64,000 bases of DNA from a virus (taxonomy: Duplodnaviria > Caudoviricetes), in IMG/VR virus record IMGVR_UViG_3300042988_001200. One strand, given 5' to 3'. Each line of letters begins with the position of its first letter. Within the stretch, counting starts at the first letter, position 1. The notes under the pieces are model-generated. The model ran no database searches. It was not told the DNA's origin and worked only from the letters and a program-made list of their open reading frames with translations. The translations under genes and the position numbers were made by a program. Positions 2,561 to 47,927 of the stretch are shown in pieces.

Positions 2561-4888
2561 TTAACGAATGGGGCAACCTGATTTACAAGTATCATCAACT
2601 ACATCATCATTAGATACTCCATTAAGGATAAGTTCATGTTTATTAAGAATATCATAATCTACTAGAAATAGTATAGACTCTGATTCATTAGAACCCTTAA
2701 CCTCTTTACAATAAGAGGGGATTTTACTAAGTAAAGATTCATAATCTTCTTTAGAACACTCTTCAAAAGGTAGAGTAGGGGTACTTACATAATAGGATAG
2801 GAAAGAAGCATTAGTAAATCCATTAGACCAATTAGACTCTAACCAATTAAGAACTCTTAACCACTCAGTATCATCCTTTACAGTAATAGTACAACTAGGT
2901 AAATGCTCAACATACTCCTTAGTAAAAGCTAATAGATTATCTAATTGTTTAATAGCAGATACATCAAAACTACTTATATTAGTAGGAGCTTTAATAGGAA
3001 ATGTAAATAACCAACTATCAACTTTACTTAATATTTCATCCTTTAAACCTTTATCTAATTGGTTATAACTATCTAGTATCTCTTTAATATCGTTAGTTTC
3101 TTTATCTAGATATTCATTTATAAGTTTACATGTATGGGAGTAAGGATAAGGTACTACTGGATATCCCATATCCTTTAAAGTAAGGGATAATGCGTTCTTA
3201 GCTCCCATCTGTACTCTTCTATAGTAATAGGGAGACCAGGACCAATGTAACCCAGCGGATGAACCAAATATAAGAGAAGTAGTACCTTCTGGTTTAATAC
3301 AAGTAGTGGCTATAGGTCTATCAATCTTTAATATATCTGCATAAATATTAGCCTCCTCTCTTACCCATTCATATATCTTTTTCCTAATATCTTTTGCTTC
3401 CTCTGATAATGTATCTATATCTAATAAATACATAGCATCTTGCCAACCTGTTAGAGATACCCCTAATAATCTTTCATCTTGTTGAATAGAGTCCCAGTCT
3501 TCCCAAGGTATAGATACTAGAGTTTGTCTTACACTAGCTCTAGTAATAATTCTGGTAGATTGTTCTAGTTCTCTTAGATTAAGGGTTCCATTATAGATAT
3601 GATTAGGAATATTAATAGAAGATAGATTACATAGACCTCCTCCTTTAGAAGGAGTTAGGATACCTTTAGTAGTATTAATAATATCTTCATTACTCTTATG
3701 TCCTATAGATAGAATAATCTCATGGCAAGGATTGGTTCCACAATCTAAATATTTAAGACAATCTTTAGCTGGTCTAACCTTTCTAGCTGACTCATATCTC
3801 TTCCAACACATTAATAGATAATTATTAAACCCCGGTTCTCCAGCTTTCTTTAACGTATCTAATCTCTTTTCTAGTTCTGAATAAGAGGGTTTATACTTAT
3901 CAATTAAGGGTTTAACCTCTAAATAAGTAGCATTTGGCTTGTTATATAGATACAGAACTAGTTCATTCCAACCCTTAGAACCTATACATTCTGTATTATT
4001 ACTTTGAAACCTATAGCTTTTATTGGTAATAAAAGAGCCAATATCCTCTTTAGCTTTAGCACAAAGAATGTCTCCTTCTTCAAATAAACATATTAAAGCA
4101 GCTCTTCTAGTCCCACCTACAGCTATCTGAACTGCTATACAACAGCTAATATCCATACAATCAATGGACCTTAGTTGTTTATTTGGACACTCTTTAATAA
4201 TTAAATCTATATCTTTAATAGTTTTGATAAGAGCTTCAGGGCCAGATGCAGTACCCCCAAATGTCTTTAAGGGTTCTCCCCAAGGTCTAACATTATCTAT
4301 ATTAATACTAATAGACTTTCTTATACCACTATGAAGCTCTTCTAGAACATATAGAGTACAAGTAGTCCAACCTTCTTTAGAGTCCCCTACTACTAGTTCA
4401 TCTCCATCCCAGTATGTATGTTCTTTCCTATTAACTTTAGATATAGGCTGATATTCTTTAAAGGAGATAGATAAATCTTTATTTTTAATAAAAGGTAATT
4501 GAGATATATCTCTATCAAAGACTCTAAACCCTACACCAGCACCTAGCATAAGGTTAAACATAAGGTTAGAGAATTTATCTAGAGAATCTATAGCTAAACA
4601 TGAACAGTTATAAGCACATATAGGATTATAATCAATTGTTTTACTACCAGCAGCCCATCTAGCTCTATTACTAGTAGATACCTGTAGATTAGATAGTTTA
4701 TCTAGAAGAAGGTTATACTCCCTATCTAAATGCTCCTTATTAATATAATCCTTGGCTAAATCAATATTATATCTAGTAACCCTCTCTAAGGATTCATAAC
4801 CAGTCTCTCTAGTTCCATCAGACTTTAACCTTCTATAAGTTCTACAATCAATAACTTCACCTAGTCTTGTATAATTAACTTCTTTCAT
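2561..4888 (-). CDS. nrdJ: Class II (adenosylcobalamin-dependent) ribonucleotide reductase, monomeric RTPR type
   Basis: YNCS, GAGVGF, GGTASGP, RRAALI, TNPCHEI, TCIKPEGTTS, C-terminal Cys pair CKSGC. Confidence 0.93.
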   Translation of the reverse strand: MKEVNYTRLGEVIDCRTYRRLKSDGTRETGYESLERVTRYNIDLAKDYINKEHLDREYNLLLDKLSNLQVSTSNRARWAAGSKTIDYNPICAYNCSCLAIDSLDKFSNLMFNLMLGAGVGFRVFDRDISQLPFIKNKDLSISFKEYQPISKVNRKEHTYWDGDELVVGDSKEGWTTCTLYVLEELHSGIRKSISINIDNVRPWGEPLKTFGGTASGPEALIKTIKDIDLIIKECPNKQLRSIDCMDISCCIAVQIAVGGTRRAALICLFEEGDILCAKAKEDIGSFITNKSYRFQSNNTECIGSKGWNELVLYLYNKPNATYLEVKPLIDKYKPSYSELEKRLDTLKKAGEPGFNNYLLMCWKRYESARKVRPAKDCLKYLDCGTNPCHEIILSIGHKSNEDIINTTKGILTPSKGGGLCNLSSINIPNHIYNGTLNLRELEQSTRIITRASVRQTLVSIPWEDWDSIQQDERLLGVSLTGWQDAMYLLDIDTLSEEAKDIRKKIYEWVREEANIYADILKIDRPIATTCIKPEGTTSLIFGSSAGLHWSWSPYYYRRVQMGAKNALSLTLKDMGYPVVPYPYSHTCKLINEYLDKETNDIKEILDSYNQLDKGLKDEILSKVDSWLFTFPIKAPTNISSFDVSAIKQLDNLLAFTKEYVEHLPSCTITVKDDTEWLRVLNWLESNWSNGFTNASFLSYYVSTPTLPFEECSKEDYESLLSKIPSYCKEVKGSNESESILFLVDYDILNKHELILNGVSNDDVVDDTCKSGCPIR

Positions 4889-38593: not shown

Positions 38594-39022
38594 TTACATA
38601 GGGGGGAAGTATTCTTTATCTGCTTTAAATGCTACTTGTTTATTATCTAATGAGCAAAATTCATCATTACAACCTTCATTTTCATTTACCCAATTAGATA
38701 TAAAAGTTACTTCTTCTGGAGAATTAATGTTAATTTCTTTACCTAAATACCACCACTTTCCCTCCACCTTAATAATAGTAATGGTCTTTTTATCTAAGGA
38801 TTCTTCATTAAATTCATAGCTATTTACTAGTTTAGAGTTCTTTAATATACTATCTAACCTATCTTTATATTTAGGTTCTAGAGAAAGTATTACTTCTTTA
38901 CTTGTATGAAAAAGTTCATCTTTATTAATAAACTGTAAATTCTCTAATAGAATTATTAAAGAATATAAAGAGGAAATACCTCTTCTAGTCTTAATCTTTA
39001 CTTGCATATGTCTATTCCTCAA
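38594..39022 (-). CDS. Hypothetical protein, last gene of Ubl operon
   Basis: 142 aa; CNDEFC. Confidence 0.55.
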   Translation of the reverse strand: MRNRHMQVKIKTRRGISSLYSLIILLENLQFINKDELFHTSKEVILSLEPKYKDRLDSILKNSKLVNSYEFNEESLDKKTITIIKVEGKWWYLGKEININSPEEVTFISNWVNENEGCNDEFCSLDNKQVAFKADKEYFPPM

Positions 39023-39317
39023 TAGGGTTTACTTCAGATAAAGGAGTGGTTAACTCTTTATATACTTTATCAACTTTAGGGTTCTTATTATATTTAAAAC
39101 CTTTAAGAGCTTTAGTTAAATTAATTATTTCCTCTTCTTGAAAACTCTTAATATTAACTGTCTTACCTCCAAATGTATATTTACCTAACTTCCTATCCCA
39201 AGCATCCTCTAGAGCTTTATCTACTTTAGAGGATTCATTATTTAATTCCTTAACAGAGAACCTTTGTAAAGCCTTATTTTCTGCACTATTACTCTTAGAT
39301 TTATTAGTCTTAGACAT
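39012..39317 (-). CDS. Hypothetical protein downstream of E1
   Basis: 101 aa; AGGAGA RBS. Confidence 0.6.
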   Translation of the reverse strand: MSKTNKSKSNSAENKALQRFSVKELNNESSKVDKALEDAWDRKLGKYTFGGKTVNIKSFQEEEIINLTKALKGFKYNKNPKVDKVYKELTTPLSEVNPIEE

Positions 39318-39328
39318 CTATTTCTCCT

Positions 39329-40024
39329 TTATTTAATATCTAAATGAACTTTATCTAAACTATTAACTACTCCTTTATTAATATCAAAAGACATTAGTTC
39401 ATAGAAGTAACCATTAATAATATTATACAGAGTATTAAGCGTGAGGGAAGCTGCCATTAAATTAGCACAGATAATCTGAGTATTAGTCTCCTTTTGTAAT
39501 GAACATCCCCTATCTCCAGGAATCCTATCTGTAGGTTTATTAAGACTAGGATATAACTCTAGGGGATTGGTTCCTATGGATTTACCATTTATATAAGCCC
39601 AGGTTATTACTTGTCCATAATCTAACTCATTACCAGGAGTAATGAATATAACATCTCTATTAGACTCAGATATAGCTTCTATAACAGCTTTTCTACTAGC
39701 CTGATTATCTACACAAGCTATACAAAGGGTTAAAACACCAGAGTCTCTATTACTTAGAATATTAGAGTATACCTTTTTATTAACATAAGTTATATGTGAA
39801 TAACAAGATATATCTAAATCTAATATCTCTTTTTGTAATGGATTAACTTTATTAAATGAAATGCTAGAAGGAAAGAAACCCTGTCTTTCTATATTATTCT
39901 CCTCTACTTTATCTGCATCATATAAATGAACTTCTATATAGTTCATGTACTTTTTTAATAGTTTAGCCATTGGTATAGCTAAATAAGAGCCGGTTCCACC
40001 ACATCCAATAAGGTCTACAAACAT
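39329..40024 (-). CDS. ThiF/E1-like ubiquitin-activating enzyme
   Basis: LIGCGGTGS, YDADKVEENNIERQ, CVDNQASR, GNE, putative catalytic GCS...Q..AN. Confidence 0.9.
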   Translation of the reverse strand: MFVDLIGCGGTGSYLAIPMAKLLKKYMNYIEVHLYDADKVEENNIERQGFFPSSISFNKVNPLQKEILDLDISCYSHITYVNKKVYSNILSNRDSGVLTLCIACVDNQASRKAVIEAISESNRDVIFITPGNELDYGQVITWAYINGKSIGTNPLELYPSLNKPTDRIPGDRGCSLQKETNTQIICANLMAASLTLNTLYNIINGYFYELMSFDINKGVVNSLDKVHLDIK

Positions 40025-40051
40025 GTTTACTCTCTTAATATGAAAGGAAGA

Positions 40052-40089
40052 TAGAGTTTAGTATCTATAAAGGTAAATACTAAACTCTA
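40052..40089. terminator. 13-bp hairpin between Ubl and E1 genes
   Basis: TAGAGTTTAGTAT-12nt-ATACTAAACTCTA. Confidence 0.6.
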
Positions 40090-40095
40090 GGTTCA

Positions 40096-40503
40096 TTAGG
40101 CTTTAACAGCTACTTTTGTATATAAAGTATAGGTAGCTCCCACTTTAACGGGTTGAGACTTGTCCTTTACAATGACTCCATCCTCCTTTATATTGACAAT
40201 ATTATCCTCAAAGTAAAGAGATTCTGATGCTTTCTCAATTAAATCCTCAATGGTAAGACCCTCTACTTCTTCTATATCATATTGGATTTGTTCTCCTAAT
40301 GAAAAGGTGACAGTAGTTACAGTAGTCTTAGAGGTAGATTCTTCCATTCTAGAGGAAGAAATATTATCAACCATTACCTCCATTTCTTCATTAGAAATAG
40401 GTTTATCTAATGAGATAACTTCTGGATTAGTGTCTTTTAAAGAAGAATCTAGTTTATTTAGTAGAGAAACGGTCTTTTGAATAATAGTTTTAACGATGCT
40501 CAT
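40096..40503 (-). CDS. Ubiquitin-like (beta-grasp) protein with N-terminal extension (start revised to ATG 40503)
   Basis: C-terminal 70 aa VTFSLG...LTIEDLI...V.VGATYTLYTKVAVKA; sits between JAB and E1. Confidence 0.7.
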   Translation of the reverse strand: MSIVKTIIQKTVSLLNKLDSSLKDTNPEVISLDKPISNEEMEVMVDNISSSRMEESTSKTTVTTVTFSLGEQIQYDIEEVEGLTIEDLIEKASESLYFEDNIVNIKEDGVIVKDKSQPVKVGATYTLYTKVAVKA

Positions 40504-40504
40504 A

Positions 40505-41335
40505 TCAATACTCCACAAATTTATACTGGTTATCTAACAACAAATCTTCTATGTCAAATAAGGCTATACTTCCATATTTATTCTCCATTAACTTAAGAAA
40601 AGTGTCTAAATCCTTCTTTAACTCTGGATTAATAGTCCTAGATTGAGTCTTAAAGATGAAGGTATTAATAGGTTTACTAGGCTTATTTCCTTTAATAAAA
40701 GTAGTTGTTAAAGGATTAACTAGCTGTTTATATAGAGGAGAAATGCTTATATTAGGAATATAAGTCTCTTCTATTGGTAATAAAAGTAATGGATTAGATA
40801 CAATAAACCTTCTATTGAACTTAGTAATAGAAGGTAGAACTGAATAATTATTGTCCTTTATAGAGTGGATAAGTATATGAAACCCGGGGGATTTAAGCTC
40901 TGAATCATCATCTATAGAAGAAAAATCTCCTTTAATACCAGTAGGATGTAGATGACTATCTCCTACCATTATATAATTATCACTGGTGTAATCCTCTAAT
41001 AAAGCCTCGGATTCTATATCAAATGCTTTAAAACTTAGTCTAGTAGTAGAAGAAAGAGTGACTTGCTGCTCTGGAATTACAATTCTCCACTTATCTAACT
41101 CTTGATTATATAGAATAACTGAGCTTATTTCTAGACTTAAGGAGTTATATTCCTTAAAAATAGATACCATTCTATGCCATAAATCTAGAGGAATCTTATT
41201 AATAGGAGGTACTAATGTAAAGAGTTCTACTACTTGGTCATCTAAACCATCAGGGTCTTCTATCTTTCTATAACAAGTTCCCCAATATGAACTATCTAAT
41301 TTATAACTACCTAGAGTCTTAGTCTTTATATACAT
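40505..41335 (-). CDS. JAB/MPN metalloprotease (deubiquitinase-like)
   Basis: LEISSVIL (Glu) ... VPEQ-like IPEQQV ... SHLHP-x6-FSSIDD..E..GFHI. Confidence 0.85.
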   Translation of the reverse strand: MYIKTKTLGSYKLDSSYWGTCYRKIEDPDGLDDQVVELFTLVPPINKIPLDLWHRMVSIFKEYNSLSLEISSVILYNQELDKWRIVIPEQQVTLSSTTRLSFKAFDIESEALLEDYTSDNYIMVGDSHLHPTGIKGDFSSIDDDSELKSPGFHILIHSIKDNNYSVLPSITKFNRRFIVSNPLLLLPIEETYIPNISISPLYKQLVNPLTTTFIKGNKPSKPINTFIFKTQSRTINPELKKDLDTFLKLMENKYGSIALFDIEDLLLDNQYKFVEY

Positions 41336-42100
41336 CTATTCCTCTTCATCTTTATACTCATCTTCTGAATCATAGTCATCCTCTTCAGTATTTGTATAAT
41401 CCTCTAACTTCTCCCATTCTATTGTTAAGGATTCATCAGACTTATATGCTTCATATTTAGTAAATATTTTCTCTAGAATAGCTTCTAAAGAGTCAATATC
41501 ATTAAAGCCATCTAAATTAAATAGACTATCCCAGTAGATATCGTATAACTCTTTATGAGTGTATTCATCTATATCTATATTATCACCAAAGCATATCTGA
41601 TTATCTGCCATTCTATTGGGTAATGGAAGAAAGTAATATTCGCCTCTTATACAAGTAGTTATATAGAACTTACTTTCTCCAGATTCTTTATCATCTAAAT
41701 ACCAGAACTCATGTATAGGTAATCTAAATTCTATAGTTGTAATAATATCTTCTGGTTCTAGTTTTCTACATTTACCCTCTAATACAAATGAAATATCTCT
41801 CTCATAGGATTCCTCTAGAGAACATATATAACTCTCTTTTTTTAATAGAGAGAACCTTGTATTTAAATCCTTTATATAGGGTTCTAATTTATTGATTAAA
41901 ATCTCATCAATCTCATTAATTCTACAATAATTTCTAATTATCTTTAAATTTAAATCATTTATACTCTCTTTAAAGTTAAACCAATTATTGAACTTACAGT
42001 ATTTACATTCTTTGTTTTTAATATCTCCAGTATCTCTATTAATTATTTTAATAGTTTTTACTTGCTCTCTATAAATTTCTATTAACTCAGGATTTGACAT
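41336..42100 (-). CDS. Prokaryotic E2-like conjugating enzyme (family D-like; start revised to ATG 42100)
   Basis: YFLPLPNRMADNQICFG...YWDSLFN; acidic C-terminal tail. Confidence 0.75.
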   Translation of the reverse strand: MSNPELIEIYREQVKTIKIINRDTGDIKNKECKYCKFNNWFNFKESINDLNLKIIRNYCRINEIDEILINKLEPYIKDLNTRFSLLKKESYICSLEESYERDISFVLEGKCRKLEPEDIITTIEFRLPIHEFWYLDDKESGESKFYITTCIRGEYYFLPLPNRMADNQICFGDNIDIDEYTHKELYDIYWDSLFNLDGFNDIDSLEAILEKIFTKYEAYKSDESLTIEWEKLEDYTNTEEDDYDSEDEYKDEEE

Positions 42101-42155: not shown

Positions 42156-42308
42156 TTAATGAACAATTATTAGCTTAATAAGATTACCAAATGGACCAGA
42201 TAGAGTTACTAATTCTAAGAATAGTAGACTAATAAACCCTATCATTGCTAATCTTCCATTCACTAATTCAGCAGTATTATCAAATATAAATCTAGGTTTA
42301 ATCTTCAT
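42156..42308 (-). CDS. hli: High-light-inducible protein (HliP); not in ORF track
   Basis: MKIKPRFIFDNTAELVNGRLAMIGFISLLFLELVTLSGPFGNLIKLIIVH contains the chlorophyll-binding ExxNGRxAMxG motif. Confidence 0.92.
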   Translation of the reverse strand: MKIKPRFIFDNTAELVNGRLAMIGFISLLFLELVTLSGPFGNLIKLIIVH

Positions 42309-42443: not shown

Positions 42444-42872
42444 CTAAACTCCTAGTTTACAGATAATAGAGGAAGGAATCTGGTAATTAATAAGAGTCTT
42501 TACAGTATTCCAATTACCCCCTCCTAGACCACAACCTATTTTATAAGGGATATAAACTTTAAGATTTAACTCTTGGGCTATTTCATTAACTAACCCTAAT
42601 CCTTTAGATAGAGCTTTATAGTCTGTATGTATCCCTGTATTACCATAGGTATTTTGCCCAATTAGAGATACTATTACTAGGCTCTCTATTCTAGTAGTAA
42701 TAATATCTCCCATTTCTAGATTACCTACTTGTGATTTATAATCTATTTCTACTTGAGGATATTTAGTTTTAATGGATAAAGCTAGACCTTTACCCATTAC
42801 TCCTTGTTTATTAACCTGATGGACGATGATTCCTTCTTTAATGTCTAAGATATTCTTCTCTATGATTTCCAT
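42444..42872 (-). CDS. Macrodomain protein (ADP-ribose processing)
   Basis: NIL...IVHQVN..GVMGKGLA..IK.KYP...PYKIGCGLGGGNW. Confidence 0.88.
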   Translation of the reverse strand: MEIIEKNILDIKEGIIVHQVNKQGVMGKGLALSIKTKYPQVEIDYKSQVGNLEMGDIITTRIESLVIVSLIGQNTYGNTGIHTDYKALSKGLGLVNEIAQELNLKVYIPYKIGCGLGGGNWNTVKTLINYQIPSSIICKLGV

Positions 42873-43204
42873 TAAAGACCTTTTATTAATTGGATATAAC
42901 CTTTATTTAATTGAATATAGTTGTTTAGAATTGTATTTAGTAACTCTATAAGTTGCTCTTTAGAGGCTCTATCTATACAACTTTCAAAGGTTTCTTTTAT
43001 ATCTTTATCTTCAGTATTCTCATAGAATTTACCTATACTCTTAACAAAGTATATTATCTTTAGCTTCCTATTCTCTCTATAATAGTTCTCTAAAGTCTCA
43101 ATTACTAATTGTTTTAAATCCTCTCTATTAAGATTTCTGGCCTTTAAATTATATGAAGCAATCTTAAACTGCTCTTCTAAAGTGAGATTTAAGGTAGATT
43201 CCAT
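42872..43204 (-). CDS. nblA: NblA-like phycobilisome degradation adaptor, tandem two-unit fusion
   Basis: Unit 1 LTLEEQFKIASY...LNREDLKQLVI; unit 2 F...IDRASKEQLIELL..I..YIQLIKG. Confidence 0.7.
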   Translation of the reverse strand: MESTLNLTLEEQFKIASYNLKARNLNREDLKQLVIETLENYYRENRKLKIIYFVKSIGKFYENTEDKDIKETFESCIDRASKEQLIELLNTILNNYIQLNKGYIQLIKGL

Positions 43205-47354: not shown

Positions 47355-47927
47355 TTATGGGTTTTTACATGTTGAAATAAAGAACTTGGGAGATACTTCT
47401 CTTGTTAACCATACGGTTTTAGGCTTTGTCTCCCAAAATAATAACCCCTCCTCTTGCATTAATTTACTGTTAATACTAACTATATAACTAGGTAAATTAA
47501 CTTTTCTACCATTTCTATCTCCTATTTGTCTGGCTGATTCTCTCTTAGTAGAAAGGTGAACTAGATATCTGGATATAGGTAATATACCTTTTTCTTTTAT
47601 ATCTTTAACTCTATCTTCGGTTAATCCGTGATATAAAATAGGGGGTGGAGTTTTAGGTTTATCTAATATTGGATAAGGAAAACTATGACCATAACAAGCT
47701 CTAATAATAGTGTTATTCCTTTCAAATCTCTTATTATTCTTAATGAAACTGGTTATATCCTCACTAGTTATATCTTCTAAACCTATAATCTCATTAATTA
47801 ATTTAGTAACTTCTTGTACATTAAACCACCCTCCCTCATTAGTTTTATTACCACAGTGTCTTAATATATAACATAAAGATTTAGATAACTTAGTTAATTT
47901 AGTTTTAGTAGCATCTTTAATTGTCAT
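47355..47927 (-). CDS. kptA: RNA 2'-phosphotransferase (Tpt1/KptA)
   Basis: SKSLCYILRH, KRFE, IRACYGHS, LYHG, R.LVHLS, VWLT..V.P. Confidence 0.9.
   Translation of the reverse strand: MTIKDATKTKLTKLSKSLCYILRHCGNKTNEGGWFNVQEVTKLINEIIGLEDITSEDITSFIKNNKRFERNNTIIRACYGHSFPYPILDKPKTPPPILYHGLTEDRVKDIKEKGILPISRYLVHLSTKRESARQIGDRNGRKVNLPSYIVSINSKLMQEEGLLFWETKPKTVWLTREVSPKFFISTCKNP

Follow-up and report, generated by a model that had tools for sequence, protein, structure and literature searches.

Operons of class 6d are known to combine a stand-alone ubiquitin-like protein (Ubl) with a "highly conserved" C-terminal Gly, a JAB peptidase with a JAB-N region (conserved Trp), a Cys-bearing E2-like protein with a downstream His, and a minimal ThiF-type E1 (PMC1779556). 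In the literature that we searched, mostly without subscription papers, we found no functional study of class 6d or PRTRC cassettes, no study of phage-encoded Prok-JAB cassettes or Ala-ended Ubls, and no natural beta-grasp modifier activated at alanine. Activation at a terminal Ala is best described in type II CBASS, in which the C termini of 1,583 CD-NTases are Gly or Ala (PMC10097602). The premise of the first-pass annotation of this locus, that E1 activation requires a C-terminal Gly, is thus too strict. The Ala-ending CD-NTase of Enterobacter cloacae is conjugated, and replacing the terminal Gly of Escherichia coli cGAS with Ala reduces conjugation but does not eliminate it and raises the thioester level, whereas a terminal Ser, Val, Arg, or Trp abolishes conjugation (PMC10097602). 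An E1-AMP structure has also been solved with an Ala-ending CBASS tail, and Cap3 cleaves after that Ala (10.1101/2022.03.31.486616). Among beta-grasp proteins, the G76A mutant of ubiquitin forms conjugates that better resist deubiquitinases (PMC5298413), and in Bil, ATP binding is blocked by a terminal Ala left untrimmed after Gly, the Ala there being an extra residue and not a replacement (10.1101/2023.09.26.559546).

The locus described here lies in a 64-kb stretch of viral DNA (the window, meaning the whole stretch analyzed), in which four co-directional genes follow one another in the order E2-JAB-Ubl-E1 (Table 1). As in class 6d operons, the Ubl is a small stand-alone beta-grasp protein, the JAB appears to have a JAB-N region, the E2-like protein bears a Cys, and the minimal ThiF-type E1 lacks a rhodanese domain and is accompanied by an adjacent JAB gene. 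The N-terminal region of the JAB contains the invariant Ile-Pro and Trp53, and its Arg is not invariant in the alignment. The E2-like protein scores 12.7 bits against a Prok-E2_D cutoff of 25; Cys170 is invariant in the E2 alignment, whereas the conserved downstream His of class 6d E2 proteins is absent in this phage group. The best NCBIfam match of the E1 is PRTRC_ThiF (68 bits; cutoff, 144.75), and the match to PRTRC protein A reaches 12.6 bits (cutoff, 101.8). Profiles for PRTRC proteins B and C had no match in the cassette. The scores for PRTRC cassettes (NCBIfam TIGR03734-03742) are all under their cutoffs, and of the genes called in the flanking 10 kb on each side, none belonged to a ParB family. 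The cassette matches class 6d, as a PRTRC-like variant without the terminal Gly of the family. Every catalytic residue of E1, E2, and JAB is kept, with no stops, and the 64-kb window, part of a 204-kb genome, contains no second Ubl.

The element that carries the cassette is a freshwater cyanobacterial virus, a large, lytic-type cyanophage whose longest contig is 204 kb. The window contains two cyanophage marker genes (Table 1), and its helicase is nearest to those of Microcoleus phage My-WqHQDG and Microcystis phage Ma-LMM01. The cassette looks accessory, since cultured relatives had no E1 match at E <1e-5.

Table 1. Features of the Ubl cassette and its surroundings (window coordinates)
Feature	Position	Strand	Basis or remarks
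E1 (ThiF family, PRTRC-like), 231 aa	39329..40024	(-)	GxGG loop, Asp36, Arg47, Lys59, Asp106, and catalytic Cys174 intact
Stem-loop, 16-bp stem plus pyrimidine tail, just 3' of the Ubl stop	40052..40089	(-)	z -5.4
Terminal codons AAA GCC (Lys-Ala) plus double stop TAA TGA	40093..40104	(-)	
Ubl, 135 aa, C-terminal Lys134-Ala135	40096..40503	(-)	ORF, fold prediction
Beta-grasp domain, residues 61-135	40099..40323	(-)	Structure prediction
N-terminal extension, residues 1-60: possible amphipathic helix (2-17) plus acidic, Ser-rich, poorly ordered linker	40324..40503	(-)	
GGAG ribosome-binding site, within the 3' end of the JAB gene, 7 nt ahead of the Ubl ATG	40511..40514	(-)	
JAB/JAMM peptidase with probable JAB-N region, 276 aa	40505..41335	(-)	Glu69, His128, His130, Ser139, and Asp142 intact
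E2-like protein	41336..42100	(-)	Weak Prok-E2_D match; conserved Asn162, Cys170, Phe-Asn motif
High-light-inducible (hli, chlorophyll-binding) protein	42156..42308	(-)	Cyanophage marker
nblA phycobilisome-degradation gene	42872..43204	(-)	Cyanophage marker

The Ubl gene starts with the ATG at 40503, one base past the JAB stop and in agreement with the start of the ortholog. An alternative upstream TTG (40518) overlaps the JAB gene, and it was rejected in favor of the ATG on the evidence of the ortholog and the ribosome-binding site. The gene ends AAA GCC TAA, with a second stop, TGA, immediately after. The only glycines of the protein are residues 70, 82, 109, and 122; Gly122 sits before the last beta-strand (124 to 128 in the predicted model), so trimming cannot expose a usable Gly. 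Shifts of -2 to +2 in the last Ubl codons also produced no Gly. Trimming at an internal Gly, stop read-through, and frameshifting were accordingly rejected as routes to a Gly end, being ruled out by the fold, the double stop, and the shifted frames, respectively. The original description of the Ubl as ending Lys-Ala, with no internal Gly near the end, agrees with the reading frame, the glycine positions, and the frameshift check.

The Ala codon itself is also found outside the window. Over this codon, the probable source run (depth 74) has exactly the same DNA, and so does a contig of a different study (depth 11.6), which spans the codon; no base differs. A JGI contig (L002) starts at the identical base and is probably from the same sample as the second-study contig. 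Runs from a 2020 subsurface study matched the cassette without differences in portions outside the Ala codon. In its source run, the Ala-ending genotype is an abundant one, and other studies contain it without change. Because identical DNA occurs in two independent samples, the codon is unlikely to be an assembly error, and the Gly-to-Ala swap in the Ubl is real. GCC is one base from a Gly codon, as an error would require, but with the codon seen twice, a double stop behind it, no Gly in the shifted frames, and the nearest Gly (122) inside the fold, we find it hardly credible that a sequencing error, read-through, frameshift, or trimming step restores a normal Gly end. Codon usage is silent on the age of the change (GCC makes up 13% of Ala codons, and GGC makes up 6% of Gly codons). 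No RNA data set was listed as containing the sequence, a result that has no bearing on expression.

The closest relatives of this Ubl end differently. Two sister phages (L004/L152 and L150) have the same neighborhood and an E1 that is 60% identical to that of the window. Their Ubls are 120 aa long, are 49 to 51% identical to the window Ubl in the domain, and end Lys-Gly, with the terminal codons AAG GGG TAA versus AAA GCC in the window. In the alignment, the Ala of the window fills the terminal Gly column of the family, which indicates a substitution rather than an added tail. Across the fetched loci, the linked Ubl ended in Gly for 110 of 118 nonredundant E1s. A profile search recovered 118 additional Ubls whose ends are intact; each ends Lys/Arg-Gly, followed by a tail of 0 to 7 residues. 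These counts lean to Gly, as most of the proteins used to seed the search profiles end in Gly. Conservation of the terminal Ala among homologs, proposed in the first-pass annotation as a check, is thus contradicted by the two closest orthologs and by most E1-linked Ubls. The same annotation had equated Gly ends in all close homologs with a lesion or an error; sequencing error is largely excluded, but a lesion keeps some probability. Other searches returned little: a word-indexed search with the Ubl matched only the Ubl itself, phmmer over 1.84 billion representatives gave one true ortholog, and single-protein scans of viral contigs with the E1 and with the JAB gave nothing.

Several features of the wider family deserve mention in their own right. 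Gene order is E2-JAB-Ubl-E1 in the window (39329-42100) and JAB-Ubl-E2-E1 in the sisters (L004 3956-6705 and L150 7112-9869), and the flanking genes are shared. The gene run that holds the cassette also includes, farther upstream, a macrodomain gene (42444-42872) and a Tpt1/KptA gene (47355-47927), an ADP-ribose-related pair that the sisters keep. Two orphan ORFs (101 and ~137 aa) after E1 (window 38594-39317) are conserved in the sister phages and are possible targets or accessory parts; considered as the alpha-helical protein of class 6d, neither had a family match. In the near-identical strains L152 (7124-9157) and L150 (7112-9159), the JAB, Ubl, and E2 genes are 86 to 90% identical (dS, 0.13 to 0.18), and the E1, helicase, macrodomain, and KptA genes are 97 to 100% identical (dS, 0.01 to 0.04), which suggests exchange or fast evolution of the JAB-Ubl-E2 block. 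At position 12, where the nucleotide-binding loop has its final Gly, the sister E1s (L004 6001-6705 and L150 9165-9869) carry Ser, which occurs there in only 2 of 110 Gly-paired E1s. A cyanophage-like contig (L005 1-8313) carries two cassettes within 8 kb, comprising two E1s, three E2-like genes, two JABs, and the one Ubl found. A large group (P0013-P0131; e.g., L016 6698-7165) has Ubls of 145 to 220 aa, many with an N-terminal Rho_N domain (PF07498), that end Gly-x-Lys-Gly, often plus a Cys tail. Among cultured GenBank phages, related E1 genes occur in Salmonella phage Arash, Vibrio phages D69, D148, and D181, Acinetobacter phage ME3, the Flavobacterium FpV4 group, and a crAss-like phage; these phages could serve as tractable models.

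The Gly-ending sisters raise the possibility that a recent, damaging single-base change from Gly to Ala crippled or inactivated a dispensable cassette and that this genotype is just the one sampled. Such an account fits the Gly ends of the closest orthologs, the Gly-type pocket residues that the window E1 retains, the single known genotype, and the accessory appearance of the cassette. In one low-coverage sister contig (L153), moreover, the E1 start is disrupted: a 33-bp insertion at ~4330-4362 truncates the called gene, and at 3.2× coverage it is either a real lesion or a misassembly (L153 was excluded from the small tree and column counts because its E1 is truncated). The four cassette genes of the window, however, have no other sign of decay, and the genotype is both abundant in the run that it came from and unchanged in other studies. 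Moreover, Ala is the only substitute for Gly with which bacterial E1s are known to work, with Ser, Val, Arg, and Trp all abolishing conjugation (PMC10097602), and it is fixed in another clade of the same family. Relative to the sisters, dN/dS is ~0.4 for the Ubl domain, between the values for E1 (0.28) and JAB (0.53), so the domain appears to be constrained like its neighbors, although dN/dS averages the whole branch and a recent lesion would not register in it. With one genotype known, selection on the Ala codon itself is beyond measurement. Overall, we regard a damaging change as unlikely, although it is the most serious competitor to a functional Ala end.

The clade just mentioned comprises seven phage cassettes (L155, L157, L170, L174, L239, L243, and L244) in which E1 and JAB genes stand beside Ubls ending Asn-x-Lys-Ala. 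Three of them encode tandem two-unit Ubl precursors joined at Lys-Ala (L170 1028-1468, L174 11160-11648, and L243 2425-2895), and several of the Ubls have a tail of 1 to 6 residues after Lys-Ala. Members of the clusters to which these Ubls belong retain the Lys-Ala ending; one tandem cluster has 24 members, some on >100 contigs, including contigs from Tara Oceans. Since tandem joints and tails occur at Lys-Ala in the same way as at Lys-Gly in Gly precursors, JAB cleavage and E1 activation at Ala are implied for this clade. The alignments thus indicate a separate phage clade that has fixed Lys-Ala across many divergent phages. A pattern scan of IMG/VR for the ending Ala-Gly-Gln-Lys-Ala retrieved no Ubl. 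In the E1 tree, the window E1 groups with its Gly-ending sisters (support, 100/99), and a single Ala clade is rejected (AU test, P = 0.018), which indicates that the window phage gained its Ala independently. Because other phages switched to Ala independently, the Ala-ended Ubl probably still works.

The E1s of the two lineages differ in the pocket. Ala-clade E1s have Val11, Pro109, and Ala137 (window numbering), whereas the window E1 has the Gly-type residues Thr11, Ala109, and Gly137 together with a small residue, Ala187, on the tail-binding surface. Ala187 is found in all eight Ala-paired E1s, including that of the window, and in 10 of 110 Gly-paired E1s, but with only two lineages behind this association it argues only weakly for Ala charging, and the residue is also present in the Gly-ending sisters of the window E1. 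Across 21 discriminating columns, the window E1 agrees with the Ala clade at 2, which does not differ significantly from the ~0.7 expected by chance. As the window E1 has a mostly Gly-type pocket and shares Ala187 with its Gly-ending sisters, we see no sign of E1 adaptation to Ala, although by its residues the window E1 may be permissive for it.

When the Ubl domain was modeled on the E1 dimer with ATP (ESMFold2), the complex scored 0.82, compared with 0.16 for the best control; the mark for such scores (58 of 80 solved pairs attain it, as do 2 of 110 mismatched pairs) is only roughly valid with custom alignments and a ligand. Complex runs shared at least 98% of contacts, with a partner pLDDT of at least 84. 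In the model, the Ubl tail runs along E1 residues 106 to 108, 131 to 133, 136 to 138, and 187, and Ala135 touches Asp106 in the adenylation site. The passing score may reflect a resemblance to known E1-Ubl complexes, which are well represented among solved structures, so the model is best read as a compatible canonical pose and not as binding or charging. Because Gly137 touches the position three before the end in this model, the Gly137-to-Ala change of the Ala clade may answer a bulkier residue at that position instead of the terminal Ala.

These pocket data also bear on whether the Ala was selected. The first-pass annotation proposed a noncanonical Ala-terminal modifier orthogonal to host JABs, and the first part of that proposal is the best reading of the locus, given Ala in the Gly column, an intact cassette, and a separate Lys-Ala clade with apparent cleavage after Ala. 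The second part is not supported, as the change is limited to the window lineage and its E1 is without the main pocket signature of the Ala clade. Under selection for orthogonality, Ala would have been fixed because phage conjugates resist host JABs (CBASS Cap3, Bil, and Bub) or escape host E1s, with the phage enzymes matched to it. The greater resistance of ubiquitin G76A conjugates to deubiquitinases (PMC5298413), the origin of Ala at least twice in phage cassettes, and the faster divergence of the JAB, Ubl, and E2 genes than of their flanks between the two sister strains are consistent with this scenario. On the other hand, the E1 tail pocket has no change specific to the window lineage, the active-site region of the JAB hardly differs from that of the Gly-ending sisters, and host JABs are specific for the tails of their own substrates (10.1101/2022.03.31.486616), which means that a phage Ubl with a Gly end is not necessarily cleaved by them. 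Some host Cap3 enzymes also cleave after Ala (PMC10097602; 10.1101/2022.03.31.486616). We therefore consider selected orthogonality to be distinctly improbable.

The other initial proposal was a decoy, with the Ala-ended Ubl binding or loading onto host E1/E2 enzymes and stalling them. In CBASS, the Gly-to-Ala change increases the trapped Cap2 thioester (PMC10097602), and the hairpin just 3' of the Ubl gene could yield an excess of Ubl over E1. In an Ala-clade phage and the two sister phages, however, a hairpin of different sequence occupies the equivalent place 3' of the Ubl gene, so that Gly-ending orthologs have it too; it would fit the production of more Ubl tag than enzyme. No host Bil, Bub, ThiS, or MoaD protein is close to the Ubl, which models on its own E1 in a canonical pose, although that score may reflect solved E1-Ubl complexes. 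Above all, catalytically intact cognate E1, E2, and JAB genes adjoin the Ubl gene, which makes a jamming role very unlikely.

We thus favor, as the probable explanation, a working Ala-terminated modifier that is charged by the phage's own E1. In its favor, the gene has kept its ribosome-binding site, and the hairpin at its 3' end is conserved in position; the Gly ends of the two closest orthologs and of 110 of 118 E1-linked Ubls, a window E1 without the other pocket changes of the Ala clade, and the block of ATP binding by the extra Ala in Bil speak against it. According to this explanation, the terminal Gly of a conserved Lys-Gly end has changed to Ala in this phage lineage, and the Ubl would be made mature, with no tail for trimming. 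The phage E1 would adenylate Ala135 and then load the Ubl onto Cys174, from which it would be handed to Cys170 of the E2 for attachment to a target, and the JAB would act as a deconjugase only. By analogy with the CBASS Gly-to-Ala mutants and ubiquitin G76A, transfer of the Ala-Ubl is probably slower and its conjugates are probably harder to remove. We speculate further, as a fairly improbable scenario, that independent Gly-to-Ala switches recur and that this cyanophage represents an early one, in which an Ala187-permissive E1 already charges a removal-resistant tag that its N-terminal helix steers to host membranes.

The Ubl fold is consistent with a modifier of this kind. Residues 61 to 135 align with ubiquitin, SUMO, and ThiS clusters at TM scores of 0.70 to 0.78 (ESM Atlas), and the best Foldseek matches are MoaD, SUMO, and NEDD8, with weak E values (~0.01) and probabilities of ~1. 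The predicted domain has an AlphaFold pLDDT of 75 to 88, and residues 1 to 59 are poorly ordered (pLDDT, <50), which bears out the 60-aa N-terminal extension reported initially, the domain beginning at residue 61. In a shuffle test, the first 17 residues seem amphipathic in the window Ubl, L004, and L010 (P = 0.04, 0.006, and 0.003, respectively), and the same test was not clear for L150 or L005. Extensions measure ~45 aa in the sisters, 20 to 30 aa in L005-L010, and 70 to 150 aa in most profile matches, so a 60-aa extension appears ordinary for this Ubl family. Bil and Bub Ubls likewise have disordered or helical N-terminal extensions (10.1101/2023.09.26.559546; 10.1101/2024.11.21.623953; 10.1101/2024.11.21.623966). 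In the window Ubl, the extension may be a disordered linker of the kind usual in the family, preceded by a helix that possibly binds a membrane or a partner; membrane targeting by this helix is only a guess.

The locus makes the question of the terminal residue directly testable, because it provides a natural sister pair, an Ala-ending Ubl and Gly-ending orthologs that are ~50% identical, with E1s that are 60% identical, plus a distant Ala-adapted clade. Cross-charging of these Ala and Gly sets would reveal if a cascade of E1, E2, and JAB can switch its terminal residue and by what route, and the sets could provide slow-to-remove or orthogonal conjugation tags. The surprise is limited by the CBASS precedent for Ala-end chemistry.

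Compared with described systems, the cassette departs from known class 6d and PRTRC systems in residing on a lytic-type cyanophage, and from class 6d in the Ala of its Ubl, whereas the sister phages keep the Gly. Type II CBASS resembles it: there, a JAB accompanies a bacterial E1-E2 cascade, and the activated residue is a C-terminal Gly or Ala (PMC10097602; 10.1101/2022.03.31.486616), but the CBASS substrate is a nucleotidyltransferase with a disordered tail, its E1 and E2 are fused (Cap2), and it serves host defense; the window has a beta-grasp substrate and separate E1 and E2 proteins. Bil and Bub share with it a separate Ubl, E1, E2, and peptidase (10.1101/2023.09.26.559546; 10.1101/2024.11.21.623953; 10.1101/2024.11.21.623966). 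Their Ubls, in contrast, are host encoded and have a conserved Gly that is exposed by JAB trimming, and the Bil E1 is a multidomain protein, whereas the window E1 is minimal. Bub (class 6e) further differs in an E1 without a catalytic Cys, a Ser-type E2, BubE/DUF6527, and Tyr/Ser oxyesters, whereas the window keeps the invariant Cys174 and Cys170. Ubiquitin G76A is similar in that Ala replaces the terminal Gly of a beta-grasp protein, but it is engineered and eukaryotic. It is said to have been used as an E1 substrate by Pickart in 1994. A further counterpart is the Lys-Ala phage clade, which we encountered in no paper and which has the same cassette type, the same Lys-Ala end, and the same E1 Ala187; there, Ala is fixed and accompanied by tandem precursors and Val11/Pro109/Ala137, whereas in the window it occurs in one genotype with Gly-ending sisters.
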